Virus record (IMG/VR): IMGVR_UViG_3300028886_000061
Coordinates: 9,635-73,634 of that record
Reading direction: 5' to 3' (one strand)
Source: a virus
Lineage: Duplodnaviria; Heunggongvirae; Uroviricota; Caudoviricetes
Length of the DNA stretch: 64,000 bases
Shown: positions 691 to 41,224 of the stretch, in pieces
Layout: each line of letters begins with the position of its first letter
Position numbering within the stretch: position 1 is the stretch's first letter
Made by a program: the position numbers and the translations under genes
Notes under the pieces: generated by a model
Database searches by the model: none
What the model was told of the DNA's origin: nothing
Seen by the model: only the letters and a program-made list of their open reading frames with translations

Positions 691-697
691 TACATAT

Positions 698-1944: not shown

Positions 1945-1968
1945 ATATTACTTTAAAGATGTATATAT

Positions 1969-2295: not shown

Positions 2296-2304
2296 ACCTA
2301 TAAA

Positions 2305-2874: not shown

Positions 2875-2887
2875 GAGCTCAAAATAA

Positions 2888-2918
2888 AAACACCCTCAAT
2901 CGAGGGTGTTTATTTTTA
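2888..2918. terminator. bidirectional rho-independent terminator between convergent genes
   Basis: 8-bp stem acaccctc/gagggtgt with loop aatc, A-run 5' and T-run 3'. Confidence 0.7.
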
Positions 2919-2924
2919 TATATT

Positions 2925-3533: not shown

Positions 3534-3583
3534 ACATAGTACAATGTTAGAAGTTCCAATTGATTCTTTTTGAACTTGACTAT

Positions 3584-4282
3584 TTAATAACTGGGTGAGT
3601 TTGGAGTAATACTGCCTCGAAAATTTCGTGGAACTGATTGATATGGTCCTACAAACGGAGTAGTATCATTAATAAAACTTTCAAGAAAAGCAGTACGTGT
3701 AGGAAGCGCATAACCAGGTATTTGAGAACCGTAAAACATATATTGTTTTTGATCTGGATCTAAAGTCACTGGATGATCCACAAAACTATTCCACCTGCAA
3801 TTATTGGAAACATTCATTATATTACCTTCCTTGAATACTTTTCCAAGTGATTCACCCAACATTTGAATAGCTTCCTTACATGCACCATATACACCACTAT
3901 CGTATTGTAATACTTCAGCTGAATAATCTGAAAACTCAAGTTCAATGCAATATTTATTTTCAGACGAATGTCGATAGTTATATGGATCAAAATCTGCACG
4001 TATATATATATCCGGAGAAAGTTCATATGGGCTAACATAAGGCCACATATTACTGTCAAATGTTATTGAATTCGAGGATACCCTATGTCTAATTGAGGTA
4101 CCATTATAATACATATACCAAACTCTCCACGTTGCTTGACCCAGATTCGTGGATGTTGGACTTCCAACATTTATCTGATATATATTGGTATCTATAATAT
4201 TACCATTCCAAAGTCCAGACACTGAATCTTTGGTTGTTGGCTTATATAGATTCAACCCGACATTCATGTTAAAACTCACCAT
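3584..4282 (-). CDS. hypothetical protein (232 aa), W/Y/N-rich
   Basis: ORF on minus strand; first gene of a 2-gene minus-strand island. Confidence 0.4.
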   Translation of the reverse strand: MVSFNMNVGLNLYKPTTKDSVSGLWNGNIIDTNIYQINVGSPTSTNLGQATWRVWYMYYNGTSIRHRVSSNSITFDSNMWPYVSPYELSPDIYIRADFDPYNYRHSSENKYCIELEFSDYSAEVLQYDSGVYGACKEAIQMLGESLGKVFKEGNIMNVSNNCRWNSFVDHPVTLDPDQKQYMFYGSQIPGYALPTRTAFLESFINDTTPFVGPYQSVPRNFRGSITPNSPSY

Positions 4283-4848: not shown

Positions 4849-5715
4849 ATGTCGGATAAACGCAATATGAAAACTGCCGTAGTATCATTCTCCGGCGGTA
4901 TGGATAGTACCTGTTTGGTGCTTTATCTTCTCTCCAAAGGACACAGTGTACATGCTGTATCGTTCAATTATGGTCAAAGTCATTCCATTGAACTCAAACG
5001 AGCCAGTCAGATTGCAAAGTACCTTCAGAAACTTGGCCTTTCCATCGATCACGAAATCATTGACCTTCGCAGTGTCTTTAATATGAGTCAATCATCCCTG
5101 GTTAAGGGTGAACATGCCCCGGAAGGTCACTACGCAGATGAGATGATGAAAACGACCGTGGTGGAGAATCGTAATGTTATCTTTTCTTCCATCGTTTTCT
5201 CCAAGGCTCTATCATTTGCCAGGATGAATCTCGATGCACTTAAGTATAATGCAGGTACAGATCCTCAACAACAGGTTTCCGAGAAGGAACTCCGGGATCA
5301 AGCCAAGGTGGTTATTTCATTGGGTGTACATGCCGGTGATCATGCTATTTATCCGGATTGCACAGATGAAAGTGTAAATATGGCCCGTGAGTTATTCCGT
5401 ATCTCCAACTGGGATTCCGATTTGGTTGTCTATGATGCACCGTTCGTTGATTGCTCAAAGGCTGAAGTGTTGAATATTGGACGTTCCAGCGCCAAGGAAT
5501 TGGGTTTGAAGAACTCACAAATCAATACCATCTTCCGTAAATCAGTTTCCTGCTATAATGCAAATGAGACTGGTAAGTCCTGTGGTAAATGTGGTACATG
5601 CACCGAGAGATTGGAAGCATTTTGGGCCAATGGATTGAATGATCCAGCCAAGTATGTGGATCCGAATATGGGTAAACGACCAGAACACTGGAACGAAGTG
5701 GAATATGACGGTTAA
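4849..5715 (+). CDS. queC: QueC-like PP-loop ATPase (7-cyano-7-deazaguanine synthase family)
   Basis: SGGMDST PP-loop, ENRNVIF, GDHAIYPDCTDE, SCYNA...CGKCGTC zinc motif; about 40-aa insertion relative to E. coli QueC. Confidence 0.65.
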   Translation: MSDKRNMKTAVVSFSGGMDSTCLVLYLLSKGHSVHAVSFNYGQSHSIELKRASQIAKYLQKLGLSIDHEIIDLRSVFNMSQSSLVKGEHAPEGHYADEMMKTTVVENRNVIFSSIVFSKALSFARMNLDALKYNAGTDPQQQVSEKELRDQAKVVISLGVHAGDHAIYPDCTDESVNMARELFRISNWDSDLVVYDAPFVDCSKAEVLNIGRSSAKELGLKNSQINTIFRKSVSCYNANETGKSCGKCGTCTERLEAFWANGLNDPAKYVDPNMGKRPEHWNEVEYDG

Positions 5716-12247: not shown

Positions 12248-14117
12248 ATGAACGATCTTAAAATATTTGCAAAAACAGTTGAAAGTAGCGTATATGGACA
12301 GATCCAGCGCATGATGTCCCTGGATGCTTTCCGTAATGCTAAAATCCGCATTATGCCGGATACTCACGCCGGTATGGGTTGTGTGATTGGATTCACAGCA
12401 GCCCTGGGTGAGAAGGTAGTGCCTAACCTTGTCGGCGTAGATATCGGATGCTTTACAAAAGATACCAAGGTAAAACTCGCCGATGGACGTGATTTGAATT
12501 TTGAAGAGCTTATTAGCGAATATAATGAAGGAAAAATAAATTATTGTTATTCGTTTGATAATGAGGGACAAATCGTTATTTCAAGAATTGATGTTCCACG
12601 AAAAATCAAAACTGTGGATAAAATAGTTGAGATTTTACTTGATAATAATGAGATAATCCATTGCACAACAGATCATATATTTTATGATATTAATAGAAAC
12701 GAAATAAAAGCCGAAAATTTAAAACAAGGCACTTCGTTATATCCATTATATGTAGATATTGCAAAAAAAATCACGATGGAGAAATTCAAACCAAAAACAA
12801 CAATAATGGCAAAATAAGAAAACATCTTGAAAAATACACAGTCATATACCAACCAACATATCATAAATGGACTTATGCCCACGTATTGGCAGATGAATAT
12901 AATACGAGAATACTTGGAAGTAACCCAACTGGATCATATGTACGTCACCACAAAGATTTTAATTATCTGAACAACAATCCGGATAATATCCAAAGAATGA
13001 CGTATAAAGAACATTGGAATTTACATTCCAATATGGTTAAGGTCACTAATGAAATGGGTATTACTGGGTTCAAGGCAGTTGCTAAAAAACATCCGCAAAT
13101 ATATAGTGAGGCTGGTAAAAAAAGAGCAGAATCTACTTGGCGTGGGAAAAATGCAGCGAATAATTTAAAAAACATGAGTGAATTGACACAAAAACGAAAT
13201 GAATCTGGTGAATTAAATTCTCCAGCCCAACGAGAAGCTGCAAGGAAAAGTCAACTTGCTCATAATACAACCAAATTCGATACACAGAATAAAGATCCTC
13301 AATTTAAACTTATACAACAAATCGGTAAACTTAAAAAAATCCTCATATTATGTGGTAATGATTTTTCGCAGAAGTCATATGAAATAGCTCGTAAAAAAGT
13401 CTATAATGGATATACGTGGGAGAAAGCAAATGAGATATCAATAAAATCAAAAATGACATTTGAGGAGTTGATTGGATATAAAAATCATAAAGTTATTTCG
13501 GTAAGGATTATTGATGAAACTACTGATGTATATTGTCTTACTAATTTTGAATATGGTAACTTTGCTTTGAGTTCTGGTGTATTTGTTCATAATTGTGGCA
13601 TGTACGTCGTAAACTTGGGTCCTATTGACATCGACCTATCGGGGTTGGATAAGTTCATTCACGAGAACATCCCTTCTGGTAGCGATGTTAACGAGAAGCA
13701 GGGTACCCGTGTGGAGTTCCCAGAACTAAATGATATGAAGATGTATAAGCATCTCCGTAACATTCCTCACCTGCAGTCCTCCATTGGGTCATTGGGTGGC
13801 GGTAATCATTTCATCGAAGTAGACATTGCCGAGAATGGTGACAAGTATTTGGTGATACACACCGGTTCCCGTAACCTGGGTCAGCAGGTATGTAAGTACT
13901 ACCAATTATACGATATATGGCTACTCTCAAAATTATCAACGACAAAATCAACGAACGCGACTGGCTCGCCGCTCGCACCGAACTCGGTACCAGTATTTCC
14001 GCTTTCGCTTGGAAGGAAGCATTTCTTTTCAATTCGTCCAACGACACCACCCTCGAGAAGTCCGTCAAGGCCATAGAGTGGCTCATCAATCACGGCTATA
14101 TTTCCATCGAAAATTAA
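12248..14117 (+). CDS. rtcB: RtcB-family RNA ligase, interrupted by an HNH intein and by two frame disruptions; C-terminal catalytic third not found
   Basis: MPDTHAGMG and GVDIG|C..HN|CGM intein junction exactly at the conserved DIGCGM site; GGGNHFIE and HTGSRNLG motifs; homology resumes in another frame after about 13900 (RDWLAA..AFAWKEAFLF). Confidence 0.6.
12449..13593 (+). mobile_element. intein with HNH homing-endonuclease domain inserted in rtcB
   Basis: Starts with Cys after DIG, block-B TTDH, HNH-like YVRHHKD..NNNPDN..EHWNLH, ends FVHN followed by C-extein CGMYVV; length 1145 nt (not multiple of 3) because of A8 run. Confidence 0.65.
12763..12770 (+). other. A8 homopolymer at which the intein reading frame shifts (+1 nt needed to restore frame)
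   Basis: Frame 2 ORF ends shortly downstream; frame 1 continues with HNH motifs. Confidence 0.5.
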
Positions 14118-17042: not shown

Positions 17043-17276
17043 ATGAGTGAAAAAGATTTAAAAAACATCAAAAGTTCCATCCAGTTAGGATTCGAACTCT
17101 TCCGTAGGAAGGCAGCAGAGACCGGGGATTGCAGTTCCACCTGTCCATTTATCACTGAATGTAAACGCGGGAACAAGACTCTGTGTGAACTCATTCTCCA
17201 CTACCCAGCGGATCGCCTCGAGAAACCCTTTGAGGATCCACGCCAGTACAAAATGTTCGAGGAGGACAAGCAATGA
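17043..17276 (+). CDS. hypothetical protein (77 aa)
   Basis: ORF. Confidence 0.35.
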   Translation: MSEKDLKNIKSSIQLGFELFRRKAAETGDCSSTCPFITECKRGNKTLCELILHYPADRLEKPFEDPRQYKMFEEDKQ

Positions 17277-17644
17277 AGAAGATTCTATATATTATATCAC
17301 TGCTCGCATGCATTGTATTGTTCGGGAGTTGTGCCGGTAACAGCTGGGAGTATAAGGTCGAAGTGTCCTACTACTACGAGGATGAACCTGATAAGATTCT
17401 CACCTACGAGTTCAACGAGATTATGAGTCCCAATTCATTTGTTAAATCTGCCAAATTGGATGCATACACAAATGTATTTGATGACGGCCAAAGACTGGTT
17501 ACAATGTTGGTATGGAAATTCAATGGTTCCATAACCAGCACTCATACATACGAACGCGAGATAATAAAATGTCCCGGAAAGAAGATACGGCCGGTATGCA
17601 CCACTACCAAGTTCCTGGGTAGTACAGCATCAAAAACCCCTTAA
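17273..17644 (+). CDS. putative lipoprotein (123 aa)
   Basis: Signal peptide with lipobox LFGSC. Confidence 0.5.
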   Translation: MKKILYIISLLACIVLFGSCAGNSWEYKVEVSYYYEDEPDKILTYEFNEIMSPNSFVKSAKLDAYTNVFDDGQRLVTMLVWKFNGSITSTHTYEREIIKCPGKKIRPVCTTTKFLGSTASKTP

Positions 17645-17670
17645 ATTTTCAGTCTATTTGAATATTTTTA

Positions 17671-17697
17671 AAGGACATCGAAAGGTGTCCTTTTTTG
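17671..17697 (+). terminator. rho-independent terminator
   Basis: aaggaca/tgtcctt stem followed by tttttt. Confidence 0.65.
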
Positions 17698-17715
17698 AAA
17701 TAAACTTTATTGACT

Positions 17716-19293
17716 ATGTTATCAATTATAGTAGCATCCCATAACGATGAACAATATATTGAGAATACACTCGATGCAATAATCAATATCCAAGAAGTAC
17801 TTGAGACGGGTATTGAATGTATTATTGTGGATCGGAATAGTACGGATAATACCCAACAAATATGTAGAGGATATTGCGAGAACCATCCATTCATCAAATT
17901 AATCACTGAACAATCCGATGATAATGTATTGGCAACTGCTTTTAATACCGGTATGGATGTAATGAAGGGTGATCAGGTATTATTCCTCGAAGCCGGTTAT
18001 ATCCCGGATCCTAAATCCATACAAACATCATTGAATTGGTTAATGGAAGATAGTGATGCCCACTCGGTTGCCATAAATCGGTTCTATAAATTACATAAGC
18101 CAGATAACTATTATGAAATAATTGAACAATATTGGAATCCGGAATCAATGGTTGGACCTGAATTAAGTGGTTGTGTATTTAACACAAAACATCTTTATGG
18201 AGCAAAGTTTGATAATATACCAACATCCAGTGAGGTGTTCGCTATGAATGTTATATTATATAACTTCAATTATGTGCAGCATTATATTTGGGTTATTGAT
18301 GAGGACACCATCGGATTCACTAAATTACGGAAATCCCACGACTATGAATTTAATAAGAAACAATCAATAACTTATTCTGATTTCTCACATATTCAAGTAC
18401 AATACTTACAGTATTTACCTCCAACATACGGGTATAGATATGGCTTGGATGATAATCGCATATGTATAGAACGTGGTGATCGCCCAATATGGAATATGGA
18501 CTATCATGTTATAGATAGATGTAATTTAAATTGCAAATATTGCAACCATCTATGTCCTATTGTTCCATCCAATACTCCTCCAAAGACATTATACGAGATA
18601 TTCACTGATTTGGAGAAAATATCCAGATTCAAGGATATGATATCGAATTTTACAATCCTTGGTGGCGAACCGTTGTTGCATCCGGATCTCGGTATCATTT
18701 TGAAGAAAGCACGTGAGTTAATGCCAAACAACACCATTTGTCTTACAACAAACGGCACTATGTTCAAAAGATTGGAGGAACTCGCTCCCATCTTGAAGGA
18801 GAATAATATATACGTTACCCTATCATTATATCCGGTAAACAACACCGAGGAAATAGAAAATGTATTTAAAAAGTATATTCCACTTGCAAAGATGCATATT
18901 GTTCGTATTCCAACCAACGAGGGATTCGCTAAACGATTACTTCAAGAGGATGAACAAAAGGATATTGAACGTATATATAGATGTCCTCGTCGTAGAGCTT
19001 GTTGCCAGTTTGCTAATGGCAGAGTATATATATGTCATTACGGTGCAGCATTGCATTATCTAAAGGAAAAATTCGGAGATCGGGTTAAGATCGAAGATAA
19101 TGGTTTTATTGAAGTTACCGAAAATACCAAAGCCGGTGATATAATCAAATTCCTATATAATGATATACCTGATGTATGTAGACATTGTAATGATGTGAGT
19201 ATGTTCAATACAACCAGCGGTTTTTACGATTATGATTACGAGCCGTGGACCACATCTACCAAAGAACTTGAAGAATTTTATAAACATAATTAA
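17716..19293 (+). CDS. GT2-like glycosyltransferase domain fused to radical SAM (probably SPASM-type) domain
   Basis: N-terminal SIIVASHN..IIVDRNSTDNT GT2 fold with degenerate DxD (EAG); central CNLNCKYC CX3CX2C, GGEPLL, LTTNG; C-terminal extra Cys clusters; track start 17710 is TTG, ATG at 17716. Confidence 0.55.
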   Translation: MLSIIVASHNDEQYIENTLDAIINIQEVLETGIECIIVDRNSTDNTQQICRGYCENHPFIKLITEQSDDNVLATAFNTGMDVMKGDQVLFLEAGYIPDPKSIQTSLNWLMEDSDAHSVAINRFYKLHKPDNYYEIIEQYWNPESMVGPELSGCVFNTKHLYGAKFDNIPTSSEVFAMNVILYNFNYVQHYIWVIDEDTIGFTKLRKSHDYEFNKKQSITYSDFSHIQVQYLQYLPPTYGYRYGLDDNRICIERGDRPIWNMDYHVIDRCNLNCKYCNHLCPIVPSNTPPKTLYEIFTDLEKISRFKDMISNFTILGGEPLLHPDLGIILKKARELMPNNTICLTTNGTMFKRLEELAPILKENNIYVTLSLYPVNNTEEIENVFKKYIPLAKMHIVRIPTNEGFAKRLLQEDEQKDIERIYRCPRRRACCQFANGRVYICHYGAALHYLKEKFGDRVKIEDNGFIEVTENTKAGDIIKFLYNDIPDVCRHCNDVSMFNTTSGFYDYDYEPWTTSTKELEEFYKHN

Positions 19294-19295
19294 CA

Positions 19296-19799
19296 ATGAA
19301 ACGATTAGTATTAATTTTACTTTGCATCTTATTTGCATCCTGTTATAATATATATACGGTCACCACACCGGAGATGATGGATAGACACATCGAACAAACA
19401 AACCAAACAATTATTGACAATGGGTACCGATTAGAAACCTACGAATTTGACACTATACGTGAACGCATATATCACGAAAAGTTATATATGCAGGATAATG
19501 CATATTGTAAACAATACTGGTTCACCAAACCGGATGGTACCAATCTCCAGTATAATGTAAAATATCGAACTGATATCACCACAGATGAGATATACGTAAT
19601 ATATGTGGATACAGTGACCGTTATCCCGACAAATGTTCCTGATGATATGATGGATGTGGTGCAAAACGTGGCCAATCCACCCAGGGAAAAATTCAGGAAA
19701 CCAAACGATAGGACGTTATTGGGTATCGCCATTGGAGTGCCGTTTGGAAGTTTATTTGCATTCCTTACATGGACAGCAATTATTAATAGAAATCATTGA
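19296..19799 (+). CDS. putative lipoprotein with C-terminal TM helix (167 aa)
   Basis: Lipobox LFASC; hydrophobic C-terminal segment. Confidence 0.5.
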   Translation: MKRLVLILLCILFASCYNIYTVTTPEMMDRHIEQTNQTIIDNGYRLETYEFDTIRERIYHEKLYMQDNAYCKQYWFTKPDGTNLQYNVKYRTDITTDEIYVIYVDTVTVIPTNVPDDMMDVVQNVANPPREKFRKPNDRTLLGIAIGVPFGSLFAFLTWTAIINRNH

Positions 19800-19843: not shown

Positions 19844-19875
19844 AGAGCTCTCCAATAAAAAACAGGGAGCTCTTT
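19844..19875 (+). terminator. rho-independent terminator
   Basis: agagctctcc/gggagctct hairpin then T-rich. Confidence 0.55.
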
Positions 19876-19903: not shown

Positions 19904-20260
19904 ATGGACATAGTCATCACAATACCAAAATCAATTAAATGGGAGGATTACCAGAAGGAGTTGAAGGTGGTAGAATCCGGTGAACAGACTATGTTCTTTA
20001 AGGTACCGACATTACCCAAAAAGGCGAATGTTGGAGATCGTTGTTATCTGTGTCATAATGGACGTGTGGTAGGATATATGGATATTACCTGGATAGGGAC
20101 TATGGATGGTTTCACATGCACGACCACTAATATTCCTTGGCCCAAAGGCAACTATATTGGTCGCTCCGGTAAGTTCACGTATATCAAATCTATGCTTATA
20201 CTTTATAAGGGTTTTCAAGGCTATCGTTATGCACCACAGGAATGGAGACAATTAAACTAA
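19904..20260 (+). CDS. hypothetical protein (118 aa)
   Basis: ORF. Confidence 0.4.
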   Translation: MDIVITIPKSIKWEDYQKELKVVESGEQTMFFKVPTLPKKANVGDRCYLCHNGRVVGYMDITWIGTMDGFTCTTTNIPWPKGNYIGRSGKFTYIKSMLILYKGFQGYRYAPQEWRQLN

Positions 20261-23200
20261 TATATATGACTGACAAAGAATTACAAAAGATCGATGATTT
20301 TATGGAGAAGGCTATGGTGGATACCATCCTCCATCTTAAATCCAACCCAAAACAAATCACAGTAATAAAACGCAATGGTTCAAAAGTACCATTCGAGAAG
20401 GAGAAAGTGAAGGATGCAATCAAACCGGCATTCCGTCGTTGCCATGTACGTTACACCAATAATATCTACGACGACATCCTCGATAATATATATAAGAAAC
20501 TTGCTGGTAAGTGTGTCCAATTCGTGATCAAGGAACGTCAAATCCCGCAAGTATATATGACCATTGGCGTTGAAGATATCCAAAATATTGTCGAGGAGAC
20601 ATTGATGGGTTCCTATCCGCAGGTAGCCAAGGAGTATATCCTCTATCGTAATCACCGCGAGGAGATCCGTAAATTCGTGGACAAGAAAGAGGCTTGGATT
20701 GACCAGTATAAAGCATCTTCCAACACAGCTAACTCTACTGTCGATGACAACTCGAATGTAACCAATAAGAACATCGGTATTCTCAATAACGAAATTCACA
20801 AAGAGGATAACATCTATGTTTCCCGCCGTATGGTCGTCCGTAAACTCCGCAAGATCTTCCCCGATTTTAGTGCTAAACAATATGAACGTGACCTTGTCAA
20901 CCATATTATATATAAACACGATGAATCCAGCTTTGCCGGTGCCGTGGCTCCTTATACATATAGTGCCAAAGAGGTGATTCATGTAAAATATAATGAGGTC
21001 GATTATTTAATTCCTTTTGATCTCCTATATGATTTGATTGAGGAACCGGAAACAAATGTTAATCCAACTGATATAGTTTTTCAAAAATATCCTGATAATT
21101 TATATGTAAGTGATAAAAACCACACATGGGTGAAAGTAACAACAATCACTAAAAAGAAGAGACATAGAGATCTATATAGAATAAAAACATCCTTCGGTGA
21201 GGATATAGTTGTAACTGATAACCATCCACTCATAACTGATCTTAATAATATAGAGGAAACCACACCAGCAATTGATTCTTTAGGAAAGTCTCAATATAAG
21301 GAACATCAAAAAATTGAGTTTAAAGGCCGTCAAATACTCGATCTTGCAACAATTTTTGATACTTGCGAAGTTTATGAATCCTTTATAAGATATGATAAAC
21401 ACGAATTGAAACGGTTTATTAATCTTACGGAGGAGTTTGGTTATGTAATAGGATTTTTTATCGGCGATGGAAATTTTAATAATAACACTGGATATTTGAA
21501 TTTTACACAAAAAGATGTGTCATTATTAAACAAAATTAACTCATTATTATTTGATGCCACAGGAAAAGCTGGTACTGTAAGATATCATTGTGATAGAAAC
21601 ATTCACACATTGGAAGTAAGAAGCCGAGGATTATTCAACTTGTTTAAAAACTTTTTTGGTATACAAGACAAGGCTCAAGGAAAAACACTACCAATAAATA
21701 TTCTTGAATTCAATGAAGATTTTGCTAAAGGAATCGTTGAAGGACTTTATGATGCTGATGGTACAATAAATTACCATCAAATTTGGTTAAAACTTGCATC
21801 AAGATCAGCAATACTTCAAGTAGCCGAAATTATGAGATATTTTGGATATTCTGTGGGAAATGGTATACAGAGTATTCCATTTAGTAATACTGGATACAAA
21901 ACAAATTACTCATTATGGACCCTCGGATGTTCGCGTAGAATGGATAGCACACCAATGAACCTCTCATTTAAGTGGAAAAATTCAGTTATTTCTGAATCCA
22001 CACCAAAATACAAATTTGATGGCGAAGTAAAAATAACGAATGTGCAAAAAATTGAGGAAAACGATTCGTTTCTTTATCAAAATGAATTTATTTATGATAT
22101 CACAACAGAAACACATACATTTATCCTTAATAACATTATTGTGCATAATTGCGTTGCCTTAACCATGTACCCGTTTCTGGATGGTGGTATCAAAGGTATC
22201 GGTGGTCTCTCTGCCAAGCCCAAAAACATTGATTCGTACTGCGGTATGTTGGTCAATATGATCTTCGCAGTGAGTGCTCAATTTGCCGGAGCAGTTGCCG
22301 TTCCGGAAGCCCTCCTATACTTCGACTACTTCGCCCGTAAGGAATGGGGTGAGGATTACTATAAAGAGTTTGATAGTTTCTATAAACTCGGCCCGAAGAT
22401 GAGAAGACTTCTTAACGAATCTCACTATTGGTGCAACAATATTAATGAGTTACGGGTTCACGATTTCGGTAGCGAAGAGTTAAACAAACTCCGTGATGAA
22501 CTGGTGTATAATGGTGAACGTCCATTAACAGAAACCGAACTTGAAATGTGGAAGAATCATTCCATCAACAATCCGGATTTCCAGTTGAAGCTCGGTGATG
22601 GTACCCGCACCATTGGTGGACAGATTCATCAATACTTCCAACAGATCATCTATTCTATCAACCAACCGGCAGCAGCACGTGGATTACAAAGTGCTTTTGT
22701 GAACTTCTCCTATTACGACAAGGCCTTCTATGAGGGTATGTTTGGTAACTTTGTATTTCCTGATTTTACATCACCTAAATGGGAGTCACTCAATTGGTTA
22801 CAGAAGGACTTTATGCAGTGGTTCAATGCTGAACGTTTGAAGTGCGTACTTACCTTCCCGGTGGAGTCGTTCGCTATGGTATACCAGAATGGTGAGTTCC
22901 TCGATCCGGAGAATGCCAGATTCGTTGCTCAGGAGTATGCACGTGGTCATTCGTTCTTCACCTATATCTCCGATACGGTTGATAGTCTTTCCAGTTGCTG
23001 CCGCCTGAAGAACAAACTACAGACCAAGGAGTTCAACTTCACCAACGGTAATATGGGTCTACAAACCGGTTCCAAGTCGGTTATCACACTTAACCTTAAC
23101 CGCATCATTCAGGATTGCGATAGAGCATATGGATTGAACCGTAATGGTGGATGGCGAGAGAACACCAGTTTCCTCGACCAATATTTAAAGGAGATTCTCG

Positions 23201-23988
23201 ATAGGGTTTACAAGTACCACACCGCATACAACGAACTCCTATGGGATGTAAAGGATAAGGGGCTCCTTCCGGTGTATGACGCCGGTTTCATTGACCTCAA
23301 TAAACAGTATCTCACTATCGGTATTAATGGTCTTAATCAAGCCGCCGAGTACCTTGGTATACGATGCAATGATAATGATGATTACAAGGCATTCTGCCAA
23401 CATATCTTTGGGTTCATATCACAATGCAATAAGGAAGCCGGTAAAGAGAAATTTAACGGACACACCCTTACTTTCAATACAGAGCAGGTACCAGCTGAGA
23501 GTCTTGCTATTAAAAACTACAACTGGGACAAAGAGGATGAGTATTGGGTTCCCGAGGACACCAACCTCTATGCATCCTATATCTTCAAACCCAATGATCC
23601 TACATTGGATATCTTCGAGAAACTTCGTATGCACGGTAGTGAGTATATTGGGGACTACCTCGATGGTGGTGCAGCCGCCCATTTGAACCTCGAAGAACAC
23701 CTTAATGAAGATCAGTATATGGCAGTTATCGATTACGCCGCCCAAGTGGGATGCAACTACTTTACATTCAATATTCCAATGACCGAATGTAAAAAATGTG
23801 GACATATTGTTAATGCTCCCGTACATACATGTCCGAAATGTGGTAGTGAAGATATAAAATACTGGGTTCGTATTATAGGATATCTTACAGCTGTTCCATC
23901 CTGGTCATCTGGTCGTCAAGAAGAGTTCAAAACAAGAATATTCCACGGAAAAAAAGCCGGAGAATATGCAACATTTGAACAAAAATAA
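20242..23988 (+). CDS. nrdD: anaerobic ribonucleoside-triphosphate reductase NrdD with in-frame LAGLIDADG intein
   Basis: ATP-cone (VIKRNGSKVPFEKEKV), CCRL, C-terminal CKKCGH..CPKCGS zinc ribbon and glycine-radical RIIGY; alternative ATG at 20266. Confidence 0.8.
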   Translation: METIKLIYMTDKELQKIDDFMEKAMVDTILHLKSNPKQITVIKRNGSKVPFEKEKVKDAIKPAFRRCHVRYTNNIYDDILDNIYKKLAGKCVQFVIKERQIPQVYMTIGVEDIQNIVEETLMGSYPQVAKEYILYRNHREEIRKFVDKKEAWIDQYKASSNTANSTVDDNSNVTNKNIGILNNEIHKEDNIYVSRRMVVRKLRKIFPDFSAKQYERDLVNHIIYKHDESSFAGAVAPYTYSAKEVIHVKYNEVDYLIPFDLLYDLIEEPETNVNPTDIVFQKYPDNLYVSDKNHTWVKVTTITKKKRHRDLYRIKTSFGEDIVVTDNHPLITDLNNIEETTPAIDSLGKSQYKEHQKIEFKGRQILDLATIFDTCEVYESFIRYDKHELKRFINLTEEFGYVIGFFIGDGNFNNNTGYLNFTQKDVSLLNKINSLLFDATGKAGTVRYHCDRNIHTLEVRSRGLFNLFKNFFGIQDKAQGKTLPINILEFNEDFAKGIVEGLYDADGTINYHQIWLKLASRSAILQVAEIMRYFGYSVGNGIQSIPFSNTGYKTNYSLWTLGCSRRMDSTPMNLSFKWKNSVISESTPKYKFDGEVKITNVQKIEENDSFLYQNEFIYDITTETHTFILNNIIVHNCVALTMYPFLDGGIKGIGGLSAKPKNIDSYCGMLVNMIFAVSAQFAGAVAVPEALLYFDYFARKEWGEDYYKEFDSFYKLGPKMRRLLNESHYWCNNINELRVHDFGSEELNKLRDELVYNGERPLTETELEMWKNHSINNPDFQLKLGDGTRTIGGQIHQYFQQIIYSINQPAAARGLQSAFVNFSYYDKAFYEGMFGNFVFPDFTSPKWESLNWLQKDFMQWFNAERLKCVLTFPVESFAMVYQNGEFLDPENARFVAQEYARGHSFFTYISDTVDSLSSCCRLKNKLQTKEFNFTNGNMGLQTGSKSVITLNLNRIIQDCDRAYGLNRNGGWRENTSFLDQYLKEILDRVYKYHTAYNELLWDVKDKGLLPVYDAGFIDLNKQYLTIGINGLNQAAEYLGIRCNDNDDYKAFCQHIFGFISQCNKEAGKEKFNGHTLTFNTEQVPAESLAIKNYNWDKEDEYWVPEDTNLYASYIFKPNDPTLDIFEKLRMHGSEYIGDYLDGGAAAHLNLEEHLNEDQYMAVIDYAAQVGCNYFTFNIPMTECKKCGHIVNAPVHTCPKCGSEDIKYWVRIIGYLTAVPSWSSGRQEEFKTRIFHGKKAGEYATFEQK
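20962..22149 (+). mobile_element. LAGLIDADG intein (396 aa) in nrdD
   Basis: Begins with Ser after PYTY, two LAGLIDADG motifs GFFIGDGNF and GLYDADGT, ends IVHN followed by Cys; much more AT-rich than flanking extein. Confidence 0.7.
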
Positions 23989-24086: not shown

Positions 24087-25898
24087 ATGGAATGCATGAT
24101 ATGCGGAGAAATATGTACAAGTAAGACTATAGGTAGTCATATAAGACACAGACATAATATGTTATCACAAGAATATTACGATAAATATATTAAACAACCC
24201 GGTGAGGGGATATGCATATGTGGACGACCGACTGGATTCGTAAATATATCGAATGGATATCACCAATATTGTTCCAAGGGATGTATGAGAAATGATCAGG
24301 CATCCATCCAGAAAAAAATATCACAGACAAAAAAAGATCGTTATGGTGATGCCAATTACAACAATCCTGAAAAATGCAAACAAACATGCATGGAACGTTA
24401 TGGTATGGAGCGTGCTCAATCTTCTTCGATCGTTCGTGAAAAAATAAAGCAGACTTGGAGGGATAAAACACAGGATGAAAAGGAGCAATATTCAAAATCC
24501 AAGATAAATATGTGGGCACATAAATCATCTGACGATAAGCAACGAATGGTTCAAAGGGTGAAAGAGACTAAAAAATCCAGATATGGTGATGCCAATTACA
24601 ACAATCCGGAAAAAATCCGACAAACATGTGTTGAACGATATGGAGTTGATAATATATTCAAATCTAAAGAGATTCAAAGATATATAATGGAAAGAGTGTC
24701 TGAGTTATATGGCGTTGAACACCCAGCTCAATCACCGGACATACTGAATCGAATGAAGATAACAACATTGACAAGATATGGTGTGGATTGGTTCTCCAAA
24801 ACAGACGAGTTTAAGAAAAAAATGAGCACCAATAGAATATATAAAACCATACATGATAATGATGATATATTAGGATATGTTGTAATTGATGATATATATT
24901 ATATATACAAGTGTCCTCATCCGGAATGCTCCAGATGTGTTGATAAATTTTATATATCCAAGGCCGGACATAAGAATGTTCGTGAGAATCAGGGTACAGA
25001 GATATGCACAAATCTTCTTCCAATATTATATGAACGAAATAAGGGCACATCGATAGAATTATTCGTACGTGATATACTTGATACCAACTCTGTGAAATAT
25101 ATATCGAATGATCGTAAGATACTTTCAGGTAAGGAACTGGATATATACATACCAAGTCGTAAACTTGCCATAGAATGCAATGGGGTATATTGGCATTCAT
25201 TAAAGGAACCTACATTTCATTATGATAAATGGGAGAGGTGTAAGGATCTGGGAATCCAGTTGCTGACAATCTGGGAGGATCAGATTATTAATAAACCGGA
25301 TATAGTCAGATCCATCATCCTCTCGAAGTTGGGTATATATAAAGAAAGCATCCATGCCCGTAAATGTGAGATCAGGGAAGTATCATCAACAGAATCGAAA
25401 AAATTTCTCGATCTCAATCATATTCAAGGGTCTATAAGTGGATCTATTCGATTAGGCTTATATTATAATGATCGGCTTGTGAGTGTGATGGTATTTGGTA
25501 GAAAAAGAAAAGCATTAGGATCCGGAGATACTACTGGTGTATATGAATTATATCGTTACTGTAACGAATTAGGTGTGCATGTTATGGGTGGTGCATCCAG
25601 GTTATTTAATCGTTTCATTAAAGATCATCCTGATCATATGGTTGAATCATTTTCAAGTAATGATATTTCAATGGGTGATCTATACAGAACTCTTGGATTC
25701 GATCTCGTTGGTGGACAACCTATATCATATTGGTATATTGATAAATCAATGCGACGACATCATAGATACTCATTCCGAAAAGATATACTTGTGAAAAATG
25801 GCGCCAATCCCGATCTAACAGAATCCCAGATCACAAATGAAATGGGCCTGATACGTATATATGATTCAGGTCAACAAAAGTGGATATTTAAGAATTAG
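24087..25898 (+). CDS. free-standing homing-endonuclease-like protein (N-terminal Cys/His cluster, repeated RYGDANYNNPEK modules, PD-(D/E)XK/Vsr-like AIECNGVYWH motif)
   Basis: Three copies of a YG..N...PE..K..T...YG module; LAIECNGVYWH motif; located directly downstream of intein-containing nrdD. Confidence 0.45.
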   Translation: MECMICGEICTSKTIGSHIRHRHNMLSQEYYDKYIKQPGEGICICGRPTGFVNISNGYHQYCSKGCMRNDQASIQKKISQTKKDRYGDANYNNPEKCKQTCMERYGMERAQSSSIVREKIKQTWRDKTQDEKEQYSKSKINMWAHKSSDDKQRMVQRVKETKKSRYGDANYNNPEKIRQTCVERYGVDNIFKSKEIQRYIMERVSELYGVEHPAQSPDILNRMKITTLTRYGVDWFSKTDEFKKKMSTNRIYKTIHDNDDILGYVVIDDIYYIYKCPHPECSRCVDKFYISKAGHKNVRENQGTEICTNLLPILYERNKGTSIELFVRDILDTNSVKYISNDRKILSGKELDIYIPSRKLAIECNGVYWHSLKEPTFHYDKWERCKDLGIQLLTIWEDQIINKPDIVRSIILSKLGIYKESIHARKCEIREVSSTESKKFLDLNHIQGSISGSIRLGLYYNDRLVSVMVFGRKRKALGSGDTTGVYELYRYCNELGVHVMGGASRLFNRFIKDHPDHMVESFSSNDISMGDLYRTLGFDLVGGQPISYWYIDKSMRRHHRYSFRKDILVKNGANPDLTESQITNEMGLIRIYDSGQQKWIFKN

Positions 25899-25965: not shown

Positions 25966-27159
25966 ATGCAAAACGGTAGACTTATTTACAGATTCGAAGA
26001 TGACTTGGAGTTGCTCTGCAATAACAAATTGAGTGACAATGTGTGGCGCAAACTTATCAAGGACTTTAATATGCCGGTGAGTTTCGTGAATCATTCGGGT
26101 ATGTGCCATATCCTGGAGATGACGCTTAAGGAAGAACTCGGCCAGGGTTCGTTTGAGGTATTTAAGTGGGCATCACAGTTATGCTTGCTTCCGCAAGATC
26201 AGCAGGAGGCATTCGTTGGCCTTACCAGGGATGTGATGGAGGCTATGATCAAGCATGTGTTGGATAACGAGGGGTACTCCAATTACTTTAACAGAATTGA
26301 CCTCCAACAGTTGATGCCGGTGGAAAACCTTAACATACCCTCGGGAGATATCTATATTCGTCCGAATATCGGTACACCATATCTCTCCCTCGATCTTTCA
26401 AGTGCAGCTTTTCAGGCATTCCGTTACTGGGATGTTAACTTCGGAGATAAGTATGGCCGTATCCTTCCCAAGAACGCTGATACTTATAACTATTGGGTGA
26501 GTCATACTATGGCAACCGAGATGGATATGAGTACTATGAGCGATGCAAAACGCACCATCTATAAGGATAAGGATCTCTGCCAAGCCGTAGCAGATTATAT
26601 TTTCGATTCCAAGCAGATGCGTCAGGTGATCTTCGGTAAGACCAATCCTAAACGTATCCAGCATGTGGAGAAATATATGGTTCAACAGATGGTTAAGTCC
26701 CTCAATGATGAATTCGGTATCAAACCGGTTCGTCTCAATAATGACGAGATTCTTTACGAGGTAACAAACGAGTGGTCGGATAAATTGTTTACTGGTATCC
26801 GCAATGCTGTAAAGAATGATAGATCCACTAACTGGCACGTATCCATATTTAATCTGGATGCTTACCAATTGATTCAGCGAGTCGGCTATATGGGCGAACA
26901 ATTAATCAATAATGGACCTGTAGTGTTCGTTAAGGGTAACAAGGAAGAACTCGATGATGATTTTATATGGGTCTCTAAACCGGCCAGTTTCAAATGTCTG
27001 CCTACCAGATTTGCTTTTGCATTCGAAATGATGTACAAAGGTGCAACGGCAGATAGGTACGAATACTTCCTCAATCTCCCTGTTATCGCCGATGGATTTG
27101 CTACCTGGATTGTTAATCCGAATACCACTTGGGCAATCAAAAAAGTAATCAATGAATAA
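25966..27159 (+). CDS. hypothetical protein (397 aa), translationally coupled to CCA-adding enzyme gene
   Basis: ORF; ATGAATAA overlap with downstream gene. Confidence 0.45.
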   Translation: MQNGRLIYRFEDDLELLCNNKLSDNVWRKLIKDFNMPVSFVNHSGMCHILEMTLKEELGQGSFEVFKWASQLCLLPQDQQEAFVGLTRDVMEAMIKHVLDNEGYSNYFNRIDLQQLMPVENLNIPSGDIYIRPNIGTPYLSLDLSSAAFQAFRYWDVNFGDKYGRILPKNADTYNYWVSHTMATEMDMSTMSDAKRTIYKDKDLCQAVADYIFDSKQMRQVIFGKTNPKRIQHVEKYMVQQMVKSLNDEFGIKPVRLNNDEILYEVTNEWSDKLFTGIRNAVKNDRSTNWHVSIFNLDAYQLIQRVGYMGEQLINNGPVVFVKGNKEELDDDFIWVSKPASFKCLPTRFAFAFEMMYKGATADRYEYFLNLPVIADGFATWIVNPNTTWAIKKVINE

Positions 27160-28666
27160 ACAGCAACTATTCAAGTTCAAACTTGATGTATTAGATAAGG
27201 TAGCCGCCTTCCACGATCACACCTATATCGTGGGAGGTGCTTGCCGTGATATACTCGATGGAATTGATATTAAGGATATAGATATATGCACTCCTGATCC
27301 AGCAGCATTCATCGAAACCCTTAAGAGATTCTGTTCAAGGAATATACTGGAGTATAAGGTACACCCTATGCGGAATGCTATTATATTCCGTATGGAGGTC
27401 CCCAGAAGTTGTTACGATTGTAATGATACGTGGGTGGATATCGAGGTGAGTAAATATATTGATTCCGAAGAGATTACTGGTGGGAATCGCGACTTTACCT
27501 GTAATGCCATTCATTGGCCTTGTGGTAAGGAACTTTGTGATAGGGAAGGGCACTATACTGGATTCATGTATCCTGCAGAGTCAACGGGTGCCATCTTCAA
27601 TTGGGAGGATCATGTCCTTCAACCGGTATATCCCAATGCATTCAATGATAATCCGGTTCGTATCTTTAGAGCTGCCGATATGATGTGCCGTCACACGGAA
27701 TGGACACCATCAGCAATCACCTGTATAATGGCACGTAATACAATGAAGGATCTTCAAGGTACATTATTCAATACCAGTCTTTCCAATGCATGTGGCCAGA
27801 TAGTAGGTAAGATATTATATGAACTCGCACAAGGAGATCGAGAATGGGAGGCCGTGCGTAATGCATTTAATTTCCTGATGGAAGTGGATGCTTGGAGTCT
27901 TATTCATCCCAGTATAACAGCTATGAAGGATGTTATCCATAAATCATCGTGGCATAATGATTCTGTATGGCAACATACAATAGATGTAATGAATGGTATT
28001 GAGCGTATCTTTGATGAATATCCGAATGAGTATATAATTAGAACTTGGGATAGAATAGCCGATTTATACTGGGCTGCATTGTTACACGATGTTGGTAAAG
28101 TAACCACTATAACATATGATGAGGATAGAACGACTCATTTTTATGGTCATCAGGACGACAGTGTAAAGATAGCTGAACAGGTATTTGCATCAACATCCAT
28201 ACCACATATTAATAAAGACCATATCCTGAAACTCATTAAGCATCATATGGCGACTAAACAGTTCCACGATGATGAGATTAAAACCGGTCAGACGCATGTT
28301 CTGCGTAGGTTGATATATGAGTTGGGTAGTGTTCCTTTAGTGGATGATTGGGTGATATTAAATACAGCAGATTGTTGGGCATCCACCAGATCGGATAAGA
28401 GTTATCCGGCCCAAAAACCAACAATTGAAGCTCTTAAAAAAATTGATAAACTATATTGGGTAAAATATAAACCGGTACTTACCGGTGCCGAGATCGAAGC
28501 AGAACTCCATTGTGATAAACGTCTTATTAGGTGCTACCTCGAACAATTGGTAGATGTGGCGTTTCATCACCCAGTGATGATAGAAACCAAAGAGGATGCT
28601 ATCCATTACATTCATACCCTGGGTGAGGAGTGGAAGGACGCACAGTTAAAGAAACTAAATAAATGA
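27152..28666 (+). CDS. cca: tRNA nucleotidyltransferase (CCA-adding enzyme family) with HD domain
   Basis: Head-domain motif VGGACRDILDGIDIKDIDICT and HD motif ALLHDVGK plus HFYGHQDD. Confidence 0.7.
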   Translation: MNKQQLFKFKLDVLDKVAAFHDHTYIVGGACRDILDGIDIKDIDICTPDPAAFIETLKRFCSRNILEYKVHPMRNAIIFRMEVPRSCYDCNDTWVDIEVSKYIDSEEITGGNRDFTCNAIHWPCGKELCDREGHYTGFMYPAESTGAIFNWEDHVLQPVYPNAFNDNPVRIFRAADMMCRHTEWTPSAITCIMARNTMKDLQGTLFNTSLSNACGQIVGKILYELAQGDREWEAVRNAFNFLMEVDAWSLIHPSITAMKDVIHKSSWHNDSVWQHTIDVMNGIERIFDEYPNEYIIRTWDRIADLYWAALLHDVGKVTTITYDEDRTTHFYGHQDDSVKIAEQVFASTSIPHINKDHILKLIKHHMATKQFHDDEIKTGQTHVLRRLIYELGSVPLVDDWVILNTADCWASTRSDKSYPAQKPTIEALKKIDKLYWVKYKPVLTGAEIEAELHCDKRLIRCYLEQLVDVAFHHPVMIETKEDAIHYIHTLGEEWKDAQLKKLNK

Positions 28667-30425: not shown

Positions 30426-31181
30426 ATGAAGAAAATTCTTTTTATTTTCGCACTCATGCTGACTCTCTCTTTCGGAGTCACTGCGCAGACGACCGTTCAG
30501 GTCAACCCAGATTCTGGTGGTTTTGTCCAACGGTATCCGGTCTTTGTAACTACCTATGATACAACAGTCACCTACGATACCGTGGGGGACATTGTGGACA
30601 CCATCACCAATATCACCGAGGGTACCACATTTATACCCAACTTCTACGATTACCGTGCATTTGCGTTCACATACTGGGGTTACACCTTCGATCGATGGGA
30701 GGTAACGACAACTTATAATAAATGGTACGATTGGGATGATTCGACCAGTACAACAATTGAGATCGATAGCGTCTATACAACAACGATTATCCAGTATAAT
30801 ATTGAATACGATGAAGATAGTATCATCATTGACTACGAGGGCTGGCTCGATTGGGATATGGGCATTCCTGACCTAAACGACACCACCCTTGAAGGTATTA
30901 CCAGTATTGTAATTACAGCTTATTTTATTCAGGATACCACACAGGTAGGTATTGGGGAAATTACTCCTCAATCATATCGAGTATATCCTAACCCCACGAC
31001 CAGTACCATTAATATCTTGGGAGATGCCCACTGGATCACCGTGTACGATATGTCAGGACGAGTGGTTGCCTCTACCGATACGTCTGCAATCAATCTGCAG
31101 AGTTTGCCCAATGGAACCTATCTGGTTCGTGTGACCGATGTCAAGGGTAATATGAGTACCACCAAGGTCATCAAACGATAA
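30426..31181 (+). CDS. secreted protein with Bacteroidota T9SS C-terminal sorting domain
   Basis: N-terminal signal peptide; C-terminal YPNPTTSTINI...VYDMSGRVV...LPNGTYLVRV...KVIKR matches Por secretion CTD pattern. Confidence 0.65.
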   Translation: MKKILFIFALMLTLSFGVTAQTTVQVNPDSGGFVQRYPVFVTTYDTTVTYDTVGDIVDTITNITEGTTFIPNFYDYRAFAFTYWGYTFDRWEVTTTYNKWYDWDDSTSTTIEIDSVYTTTIIQYNIEYDEDSIIIDYEGWLDWDMGIPDLNDTTLEGITSIVITAYFIQDTTQVGIGEITPQSYRVYPNPTTSTINILGDAHWITVYDMSGRVVASTDTSAINLQSLPNGTYLVRVTDVKGNMSTTKVIKR

Positions 31182-41194: not shown

Positions 41195-41224
41195 TATGAA
41201 AAAGCAATAAAAAATAGAGAAAAA

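Follow-up and report, generated by a model that had tools for sequence, protein, structure and literature searches.

A phage protein that joins a degenerate GT2-like domain to a twitch radical SAM domain, a candidate enzyme of radical sugar modification

The 64,000-nucleotide stretch of viral DNA analyzed here (the window), from a large, T4-like phage of a Bacteroidota host, probably of gut origin, encodes on its plus strand at 17716..19293 a fusion of a GT2-like glycosyltransferase domain and a twitch radical SAM domain. We propose, with a probability of roughly 55%, that this protein is a single-chain, cytoplasmic form of a widespread radical SAM plus GT-A glycan module, and that it performs a radical sugar modification during infection. 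As a system it is not of a new kind. No residue that is invariant in its family has been lost from the C-terminal half: the CX3CX2C and GGEP motifs and the four auxiliary-cluster cysteines are all there, and this half is predicted with high confidence to fold as SpeY and BtrN do.

The protein is 525 amino acids long from the ATG at 17716, the start from which its close relatives are annotated at the same length, or 527 if the TTG at 17710 is the start; the 526 residues given by an earlier note on this DNA were one out. Pfam finds both domains above their cut-offs, GT2 (PF00535) on residues 5-132 with E 1.4e-19 to 3.7e-20 (71-73 bits against a cut-off of 23.3) and Radical_SAM (PF04055) on residues 267-374 with E 3.9e-14 (53.6 bits against 29.5). 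With a dN/dS of 0.12-0.17 the gene is under purifying selection. Pseudogenisation of one homologue (P0003), seemingly truncated at 438 aa, was considered and rejected: the truncation is a scaffold N-gap artefact and the C-terminus resumes in frame. A hydrophobicity scan found neither a signal peptide nor a transmembrane segment (maximum KD19 1.13), and the protein is predicted to be cytoplasmic. The GC3 of the gene, 0.31 compared with a window mean of 0.40 (sd 0.08), hints only faintly at horizontal acquisition.

The radical SAM core and its auxiliary-cluster motif (18481..19293, plus strand) were defined with a 105-sequence family alignment, an AF2 model and Foldseek. The sequences CNLNCKYC and GGEPLL, which had been picked out before, are both present: the SAM-cluster motif C269-x3-C273-x2-C276 (C269-NLN-C273-KY-C276) and the SAM-binding motif G316GEP (to P319) are invariant in the 105 homologues. 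Further cysteines follow toward the C-terminus (C423, C429/430, C440, C488 and C491), and C423, C440, C488 and C491 are invariant among the 105 family members, with C429 about 90% conserved, giving the motif C423-x11-G435-x4-C440 ... C488-x2-C491. The C-terminal domain is therefore predicted to be of the twitch type, with one auxiliary [4Fe-4S] cluster on four cysteines. SPASM domains were taken as those with the seven-cysteine pattern CX9-15GX4C ... CX2CX5CX3C ... C, two auxiliary clusters and a PF13186 match, and PF13186 gave no match at E<=1 on the fusion protein. The earlier description as a radical SAM/SPASM-like protein thus holds for radical SAM, on PF04055, CX3CX2C and GGEP, and fails for SPASM, on the four invariant cysteines and the missing PF13186 match. 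A twitch domain is a shortened form of the SPASM domain that has just one auxiliary cluster (PMC9012708).

Residues 260-525 are modeled by AF2 at pLDDT >90, and Foldseek, like Pfam, confirms that the C-terminal half is a radical SAM domain. The top structural match is SpeY (7wzv; E 6e-13, TM 0.69, 287 columns), with BtrN (4m7t) next, both spanning the entire C-terminal half, and the sugar-modifying enzymes BlsE and AbmM among the further matches; 7wzv is also the best radical SAM match in a PDB sequence search with the fusion protein. SpeY belongs to the spectinomycin pathway and BtrN to the butirosin pathway; both abstract hydrogen at the carbinol carbon of a sugar or cyclitol and hand an electron to the auxiliary cluster. 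The C-terminal half shares with them the radical SAM core followed by a twitch domain with one [4Fe-4S] cluster on four cysteines, although at only 16-20% identity, and whereas SpeY and BtrN belong to aminoglycoside clusters, the present family is found in glycan glycosyltransferase (GT) loci and in phages, and its radical SAM domain is here fused to a GT-A domain. The 7wzv entry is titled a twitch radical SAM dehydrogenase, and in BtrN hydrogen abstraction is followed by oxidation of an aminocyclitol's carbinol carbon (PMC9012708). From these structural matches and the genomic context we infer that the fusion enzyme may act as a dehydrogenase on the carbinol carbon of a sugar or cyclitol, but it could just as well be an epimerase or a dehydratase or have some other outcome. 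No NCBIfam model reached its cut-off for this radical SAM family, the nearest being N_Twi_rSAM (52.8 bits against 170), and literature searches on twitch radical SAM enzymes in capsule loci, GT-radical SAM fusions, SpeY and 7WZV found nothing relevant.

The N-terminal half (aa 1-255; 17716..18480, plus strand) is GT2-derived with a GT-A fold, as judged from PF00535, alignment with the chondroitin polymerase K4CP, and Foldseek matches to SpsA, PcManGT and 3bcv (rmsd 2.6-3.0 over ~120 residues). The DXD motif, which binds the divalent metal and NDP-sugar, was sought by alignment and is not there: VDRNSTD replaces VDDGSTD, and E-A-G-Y replaces D-x-D-D. The sequence FLEAGY, correctly read in the earlier note as a degenerate DxD, aligns opposite the DCD and DSD motifs of K4CP, and where it has E-A-G, the 11 bacterial fusions and the 11 viral partner GT2s that were aligned have D/E-x-D-D. 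E-A-G is conserved across all close phage relatives examined, and a second fusion, 24% identical, has N-A-N-D at this position. The E-x-G motif is not proof of lost transferase activity because metal-independent GT-A enzymes exist. Nor is loss of the catalytic base established, because residues 113-253 are poorly modeled (pLDDT <50, compared with 60-90 for residues 1-110) and alignment is unreliable where a gap stands opposite the bacterial 'HED' region. Compared with the radical SAM half, the GT2 half evolves 3-5 times faster (dN/dS 0.21-0.34, against 0.05-0.15 for the former), still under purifying selection, and a homologue search with the GT half by itself returned one close relative only. 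A divergent fusion in another viral locus (L093) adjoins an NPPY DNA methyltransferase-like open reading frame (ORF).

The company kept by this radical SAM family points to glycans. It has hundreds of bacterial copies and at least 198 viral copies among IMG/VR relatives, and its bacterial and phage homologues adjoin or are fused to GT2, GT8 or GT25-type transferases. When the genes up to two places away from the radical SAM gene on each side were tallied across 35 genomes (131 genes), GT2 proved the commonest neighbor (14), followed by a second radical SAM gene (12), with GT8, GT4, GT1, methyltransferases, epimerases and polysaccharide deacetylases less common. A Prevotellaceae locus carries an epimerase, two radical SAM genes and two GT2 genes; a bacterial GT8-radical SAM fusion lies amid GT2/GT4/GT1, epimerase, methyltransferase and UDP-glucose dehydrogenase genes; and bacterial GT2-radical SAM fusions are close to GT9, ROK and cytidylyltransferase genes. 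Of 33 viral loci, 14 have a GT2 gene immediately 3' of the radical SAM one, and the paired GT2s have intact DGDD/DDDD motifs. The nearest phage homologue with a stand-alone radical SAM gene, on a 185-kb contig, has no recognizable GT neighbor, which counts against the glycan module; the gene that follows stand-alone phage radical SAM gene P0005 (251 aa) was tested as a cryptic GT and rejected, with no similarity and no Pfam match. The proposal that the protein is an unusual fusion for a phage is accordingly half right, the fused form being unusual and the radical SAM/GT pairing common, while the link to a surface glycan, one of several suggested before, is the best-supported reading, given homologues in bacterial glycan loci and GT pairing in phages.

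Among 1.84 billion representatives, at least 13 clusters from bacteria have the colinear GT2-radical SAM fusion. The bacterial GT2/GT8-radical SAM fusions (~570-970 aa; for example P0030, P0124, P0138 and P0100) have the same colinear architecture, belong to the same family, and have all invariant radical SAM and twitch residues in common with the phage protein. Unlike the phage fusion, with its VDRNSTD and E-A-G-Y, they keep VDDGSTD and D/E-x-D-D, and they have a longer GT domain plus linker where the phage GT-like half is only ~255 aa, at 21-26% identity. The phage radical SAM and GT pairs (IMG/VR L097-L120; genes 306/307 of the cultured T4-like cyanophage S-SCSM2R) likewise couple a member of the same family to a GT-A transferase, and the S-SCSM2R pair lies inside a glycan island of five GT genes with sugar-nucleotide enzymes. 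In these pairs, however, the genes are separate and the radical SAM gene comes first, the order opposite to that of the fusion; the partner GT keeps its DXD, and there are no lipoprotein neighbors.

Could the substrate be nucleic acid instead of glycan? Radical SAM steps occur in thymidine hypermodification and 7-deazaguanine pathways, and the GT-A-like domain could bind a nucleotide or glycosylated base while the radical SAM domain rearranges or oxidizes a sugar or side chain on phage DNA. In the early/middle region, the fusion gene has the genes for NrdD, RtcB and a CCA-adding-like enzyme and a T4 30.3-like gene beside it, and further products of the window are QueC, a second radical SAM protein, and a ThyX-like protein whose gene adjoins that of a UDP-glucose dehydrogenase. 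The nucleotide-metabolism and RNA-repair neighbors would also suit a nucleic-acid substrate, and count against a glycan role; loss of the DXD suits a binding role over a transfer role, and the methyltransferase-like neighbor of the L093 fusion fits too. On the other hand, the bacterial homologues are in multi-GT polysaccharide loci and not in DNA-modification or restriction settings, the viral partners are ordinary GT2s with intact DXD in glycan islands, the nearest structures act on free sugars or cyclitols, and no hydroxymethylase, DNA glycosylase or DpdA was found near the fusion gene. We therefore regard DNA or nucleotide hypermodification as improbable.

NrdD itself lies ~450 nt downstream, and NrdG and pVip profiles match the radical SAM core weakly, as expected of an NrdG-like activase of NrdD or a viperin-like nucleotide-modifying enzyme. 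Yet these matches cover only generic core residues 262-361 at 39.7 bits against a cut-off of 131 and 44.9 against 180, the PADLOC hit is likewise a generic pVip core match only, the twitch domain is absent from NrdG and viperin, and the family sits in glycan loci. A separate NrdG/QueE-type radical SAM ORF with CPHHCDGC is located at 57334-58104. NrdG proteins are small (about 150-230 aa) radical SAM enzymes with a single cluster, and an NrdG role (TIGR02495, the profile with the 39.7 bits) was rejected on the score, the twitch domain and this other ORF, and we give almost no credence to either form of the idea.

A cytoplasmic enzyme would also be placed where virions assemble, and phage-encoded GT2s glycosylate virion proteins in some actinophages. 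Radical SAM-GT modules are frequent in phages, and among the products of the window are large structural-type proteins that are carbohydrate-active (GH2/CHB_HEX, 1366 aa), all of which would fit glycosylation or glycan tailoring of capsid, tail or fibers. The fusion gene is nevertheless outside the structural module, its sole GT domain is without a DXD, the 64-kb window has no further GT2-like gene, and the bacterial homologues have no virion context, making virion modification very doubtful. The glycan that the enzyme would act on is not indicated, because the window contains no sugar-nucleotide pathway beyond the distant UDP-glucose dehydrogenase and encodes neither a flippase nor a further GT2-like protein.

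The fusion gene is bracketed by two genes encoding putative lipoproteins, and the ORFs at 17273-17644 (123 aa), 17710/17716-19293 and 19296-19799 (167 aa) contain all the sequence features that had been described for the trio. The first, lipo1 (17273..17644, plus strand), has a lipobox LFGS|C at Cys20, and the second, lipo2 (19296..19799, plus strand), has LFAS|C at Cys16 and a predicted C-terminal transmembrane helix at ~aa 139-163, with hydrophobic windows from residues 142-145 onward and an AF2 helix at 138-166. Both fit the lipoprotein signal pattern, as had been claimed. No other ORF in any of the six frames of the window does so, which makes it unlikely (roughly 2%) that the bracketing arose by chance. 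The trio had also been called bounded by terminators. Two terminator-like hairpins do exist, but the first is inside the trio, between lipo1 and the fusion gene: a hairpin with a U-run resembling an intrinsic terminator (17670..17697, plus strand; dG -17.2 kcal/mol, z -4.0, with 0 of 200 shuffles folding as well), nearly invariant in five relatives with a G-U replacement in L003. The second, with a U-rich tail, lies 3' of lipo2 (19844..19873, plus strand; z -2.66), and its pairing is preserved by compensated and G-U changes in L001, L002 and L092. Both are absent from a simple terminator scan and are supported instead by folding and by conservation, base pairing being kept in four or five relatives.

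The lipo1 ATG overlaps the stop codon of a 77-aa ORF (17043-17276), and lipo1 is translationally coupled to this upstream gene, which is Cys-rich and two genes upstream of the fusion gene. The lipo1 GC3 of 0.48 resembles that of the upstream genes, its dN/dS is 0.07-0.17, and it has no homologues in GenBank phages or IMG/VR. It closes the upstream transcription unit and, like lipo2, is an accessory neighbor of the fusion gene. The lipo2 start codon, by comparison, is 2 nt past the fusion gene stop, and the GC3 of both is below that of their neighbors. Homologues of lipo2 are found only at >=89% identity among 5.8 billion proteins, and it is an ORFan; its AF2 model (pLDDT 64, mixed alpha/beta) has no significant PDB fold match, leaving neither sequence nor fold homology to any known protein.

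Do the three genes form a cassette? It had been suggested that the enzyme modifies a flanking lipoprotein, or matures a peptide, for superinfection exclusion or receptor masking. The two unique lipobox ORFs, the spacing of 2 nt, the shared low GC3, the retention of the trio in 3-4 relatives and the Cys-rich 77-aa ORF would all be in keeping with this. However, radical SAM chemistry needs the cytoplasm and mature lipoproteins are extracytoplasmic, and their modification is topologically implausible because the enzyme has no signal peptide or transmembrane segment. Peptide maturation of a RiPP-like kind fares no better: there is no RRE/PqqD match and no full SPASM domain, the N-terminus is GT2-like, and the homologues' neighbors are GTs and other glycan genes, not small precursor peptide genes. 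The trio is not a conserved cassette, being found only in syntenic relatives of the same phage at >=82% identity; lipo2 is missing from one of them (L002) by clean deletion while the fusion gene there is intact and conserved, and between lipo1 and the enzyme gene stands the conserved hairpin. GenBank phages, searched at the DNA and protein levels with the region and both lipoproteins, yielded no close relatives, and IMG/VR scans with each of the three proteins singly gave no matches. Of 33 other viral loci with the radical SAM gene, only 2 have a lipobox ORF nearby, in both cases the same doubtful 61-aa ORF. Nothing connects lipo1 or lipo2 to the function of the fusion enzyme, and lipoprotein modification or peptide maturation is, in our estimation, highly improbable.

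In its own right, lipo2 is reminiscent of the unimolecular spanins (T1 gp11 type), whose defining topology consists of a lipoprotein signal at the N-terminus and a transmembrane domain at the C-terminus (PMC6139136), matching the lipobox at Cys16 and the C-terminal helix. Unlike the spanins, which are located in lysis cassettes, lipo2 is 23 kb from the glucosaminidase-type endolysin candidate (43330-44211). None of 58 known unimolecular spanins has a periplasmic cysteine, whereas C71 of lipo2 is invariant; their periplasmic domain is beta-rich and extended, whereas the lipo2 model is compact alpha/beta, at low confidence; and lipo2 is missing in one relative. It is a membrane protein, lineage-specific and dispensable, whose topology is that of a unimolecular spanin or superinfection-exclusion protein.

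If the fusion protein is a radical SAM and GT-A glycan module, as we favor, it would cleave SAM reductively to a 5'-deoxyadenosyl radical, which would abstract hydrogen at a sugar carbon, either in a nucleotide-sugar or in a cytoplasmic lipid-linked glycan, and an oxidized, epimerized or deoxygenated sugar would result. The degenerate GT-A domain would act mainly as a nucleotide-sugar or acceptor binding module and not as a Mn-dependent transferase. With the product, the phage would remodel an envelope glycan of its Bacteroidota host in the course of infection, a component of the phage itself being the less likely target. A bolder version, which we consider rather unlikely, is a new functional class in which a dead GT-A domain holds a nucleotide-sugar or nascent glycan for the twitch radical SAM domain, the host surface glycan is rewritten, and the co-transcribed lipoprotein, spanning inner and outer membranes, might help superinfection exclusion or block re-adsorption to debris.

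The radical SAM family to which the fusion belongs is tied to GTs but is without a curated model, and its substrates were not found in the literature. The enzymes nearest to it in structure all carry out unusual radical reactions on sugars, so that the family probably makes a sugar modification, as yet undescribed, in the glycans of bacteria and phages, and the phage fusion offers biochemistry a compact, single-polypeptide entry point. The degenerate GT domain of the fusion is a natural experiment: must the GT partner catalyze, or is binding all that is required of it? For T4-like phages of Bacteroidota, the fusion adds a candidate function in host-surface or virion glycan remodeling.

What kind of enzyme is encoded between the two lipoprotein genes? 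The three ORFs of the trio, a lipobox ORF at 17273-17644 (lipo1), the fusion gene at 17716-19293 on the plus strand and a second lipobox ORF at 19296-19799 (lipo2), were found where the earlier note had placed them. The fusion protein is 525 aa long from the ATG at 17716, a start also used by its relatives, and it matches Pfam GT2 over residues 5-132 (E 1.4e-19) and Radical_SAM over residues 267-374 (E 3.9e-14), both above the curated cut-offs. With the Pfam match and the CNLNCKYC and GGEPLL motifs, which are present together with six C-terminal cysteines, the radical SAM identity first proposed for the C-terminal half stands. The fusion protein is under purifying selection, with dN/dS of 0.21-0.34 in the GT half and 0.05-0.15 in the radical SAM and twitch (truncated SPASM) parts. 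Neither a signal peptide nor a transmembrane segment was found in it, and the enzyme is predicted to be cytoplasmic.

The C-terminal half had been described as SPASM-like, and this has to be revised. In an alignment of 105 homologues, C269, C273 and C276, G316-G-E-P319, N346 and Y372 are invariant, as are four C-terminal cysteines, C423, C440, C488 and C491. The resulting pattern, CX11GX4C ... CX2C, corresponds to no more than the beginning of the SPASM motif, and PF13186 (SPASM) does not match the fusion protein. The pattern therefore indicates a twitch domain, which is defined by a single auxiliary cluster (PMC9012708). Residues 260-525 were modeled by AlphaFold2 at pLDDT above 90, and the best Foldseek match in the PDB is the twitch dehydrogenase SpeY (E 6e-13, TM 0.69 over 287 columns), followed by BtrN and then by viperins and MoaA, with the sugar-modifying BlsE and AbmM lower down. 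A structure search of BFVD returned similar stand-alone viral radical SAM proteins and no two-domain match. No NCBIfam model scores above cut-off for the fusion protein or for typical family members, so the family is uncurated.

Stand-alone members of this family, about 250-300 aa long, occur abundantly among anaerobes from many phyla. When two genes on each side of the radical SAM gene were collected from 35 genomes (131 proteins), the commonest neighbor was GT2 (14), then a second radical SAM (12), followed by GT8, GT4, GT1, methyltransferases, epimerases and polysaccharide deacetylases. A Prevotellaceae locus combines an epimerase, two radical SAM paralogues and two GT2s; a GT8-radical SAM fusion lies among GT2, GT4, GT1, epimerase, methyltransferase and UDP-glucose dehydrogenase genes; and GT2-radical SAM fusions are found near GT9, ROK kinase and cytidylyltransferase genes. 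Searching 1.84 billion representatives with a profile of the fusion gave at least 13 clusters with the colinear GT2-radical SAM architecture. Among viruses, 198 relatives came out of a scan of IMG/VR, and in 14 of 33 full-length viral loci a GT2-like gene begins at, or overlaps, the radical SAM stop codon; several of the 33 carry tandem radical SAM paralogues. The cultured T4-like cyanophage S-SCSM2R encodes a family member (E 1e-35 to the family HMM) inside an island of five GT genes with sugar aminotransferase-like, amidinotransferase, 2OG oxygenase and dTDP-4-dehydrorhamnose epimerase genes. Judged by these GT neighbors, bacteria and phages alike commonly carry the radical SAM + GT-A module, of which the window has the fused form. 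In five IMG/VR loci (L110, L111, L123, L126 and L127), homologous radical SAM frames are broken into 90-110-aa pieces, which could reflect phage stop-codon recoding or assembly errors.

The GT half is where the window protein departs from this pattern. In alignments, its FLEAGY segment falls on the DCD and DSD motifs found in the two GT-A domains of chondroitin polymerase, and opposite D/E-x-D-D in every bacterial GT2-radical SAM fusion, so the DXD position reads E-A-G and is degenerate, as the earlier note had stated. VDDGSTD-like and DxDD motifs are retained by every bacterial fusion and by every viral partner GT2. Each close relative that was examined shares VDRNSTD and E-A-G-Y with the window protein. 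A second, very divergent fusion (24% identity over 493 columns, E 2e-27) is found on a small contig, L093. At positions 661-3847 it overlaps a stand-alone radical SAM that shares 36% identity with the radical SAM half of the window protein, and an ORF resembling NPPY DNA methyltransferases lies there too. The DXD position of this GT2-like-radical SAM fusion reads N-A-N-D, so a degenerate fused GT occurs in a second lineage. Residues 113-253 of the window protein were modeled poorly. We infer that the GT domain has been kept for binding or scaffolding and not for Mn-dependent transfer; residual or metal-independent transferase activity is possible.

Do the flanking lipoproteins belong to the same system? 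Their lipoboxes are LFGS|C (lipo1) and LFAS|C (lipo2), and a six-frame scan of the whole window found no other lipobox ORF, so the bracketing seen earlier is real and no mere chance. At 17670-17697 (z -4.0) and 19844-19873 (z -2.7) are stable hairpins followed by U-rich tails, and in relatives G-U and compensated substitutions preserve their pairing. The earlier note had described bounding terminators; the first of these conserved hairpins follows lipo1 as a terminator-like element between it and the enzyme gene, and does not lie outside the trio. The 71-nt spacer between these two genes (17645-17715) is almost invariant in five relatives that differ by 6-18% in their coding DNA. The hairpin's U-run is just 18 nt from the enzyme ATG, and expression of the enzyme may occur by read-through or from an element overlapping the hairpin. 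The lipo1 ATG overlaps the stop of an upstream 77-aa ORF, and lipo1 shares its GC3 of 0.48 with that upstream operon. Lipo2 begins 2 nt past the stop of the enzyme gene, and its GC3 of 0.375 is intermediate, that of the enzyme being 0.31. In the relative L002, lipo2 has been cleanly deleted, leaving its last ~10 nt, and the enzyme gene is intact; an apparent truncation of the L002 enzyme copy was rejected, being caused by a scaffold gap. Among 5.8 billion proteins, all lipo2 homologues are at least 89% identical, and a fold search with lipo2 gave no match. Lipo2 has an N-terminal lipobox and a C-terminal transmembrane helix, the topology of unimolecular spanins (PMC6139136), but unlike them it lies outside a lysis cassette, has a periplasmic cysteine and is not universally retained. 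An enzyme lacking a signal peptide and transmembrane segment cannot reach mature lipoproteins. Lipoprotein neighbors are lacking at the other viral loci with the same radical SAM; the trio thus recurs only by descent in one phage lineage, and the proposed conserved cassette does not hold.

The window phage is a large T4-like myovirus. The nearest relative of its PolB is that of Flavobacterium phage MaF61 (26.6% identity), followed by T4-like coliphages, and its genes include a baseplate wedge, an intein-bearing NrdD, an RtcB-like ligase and a CCA-adding-like enzyme. No DNA-level relatives were found in GenBank phages or IMG/VR; the syntenic relatives are four metagenomic contigs (L001, L002, L003 and L092) at 82-94% DNA identity. 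A 251-aa protein with a Por_Secre_tail (T9SS) C-terminal sorting domain adjoins a 511-aa SPFH/flotillin-like protein (30426-31181 and 31238-32773), and this sorting domain points to a Bacteroidota host.

Several other genes deserve mention. NrdD, the class III ribonucleotide reductase (20242-23988), is 1248 aa in the window versus 842 aa in L001 and L092. DNA alignment places an insertion of ~1.2 kb at ~20955-22149, missing from L001 and L002, and its LAGLIDADG-like motifs (GFFIGDGN, LYDADGT) identify an intein with a homing endonuclease, polymorphic within the lineage. A 603-aa HNH/homing endonuclease follows directly (24087-25898; phrog_3339, E 3e-115), at a position held in relatives by a 614-aa DUF7487 protein. 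Between lipo2 and NrdD, overlapping the NrdD start by 19 nt, is a conserved 118-aa ORF without family assignment (19904-20260; dN/dS 0.06-0.23). A QueC homologue (4849-5715, E 5e-45) points to a 7-deazaguanine pathway that may serve to modify DNA; Pfam gave no matches for the ORFs beside it. A second radical SAM (256 aa, 57334-58104), with CPHHCDGC and Pfam Fer4_12, is of NrdG or QueE type and no member of the glycan-associated family; it probably activates NrdD or acts as QueE together with QueC. The RtcB-like RNA ligase and a CCA-adding/HD-domain nucleotidyltransferase (12886-14076 and 27152-28666) suggest a tRNA repair set. A candidate anti-defense gene at 36940-37575 encodes a 211-aa protein that matches Pfam Tad3 (E 3.7e-13), an inhibitor of type I Thoeris. 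On the minus strand, a 1366-aa protein (59746-63846) combines GH2 TIM-barrel, chitobiase C-terminal and Fn3-associated domains and may serve as a tail or receptor-binding protein that degrades glycans.

What might the fusion enzyme do? It joins an intact twitch radical SAM, from a family associated with glycans, to a GT-A domain that lacks the DXD. The radical SAM half would cleave SAM and then take hydrogen from a carbon of the sugar in an NDP-sugar or a lipid-linked glycan that the GT-like domain would help to hold; the outcome would be oxidation, epimerization or deoxygenation, with the auxiliary cluster as the electron conduit. A UDP-glucose 6-dehydrogenase homologue (phrog_9148, E 2e-78) adjoins a weak ThyX-like ORF at 40394-42607; since two bacterial loci (L009 and L011) have a member of the same dehydrogenase family beside their radical SAM gene, UDP-GlcA is a candidate substrate. 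Through its product the enzyme would change an envelope glycan of the host during infection; virion glycans and DNA are less likely targets. Hypermodification of DNA by the fusion enzyme is the strongest rival because nucleotide-metabolism genes surround the fusion gene, and we consider it improbable. What is novel here is that a Bacteroidota phage carries the fused form and that its GT domain is degenerate; enzymes of this kind already exist, though uncharacterized. The fusion is of value mainly because it draws attention to an unstudied family of radical SAM enzymes that probably modify sugars, and it also offers a natural test of the GT partner's contribution.
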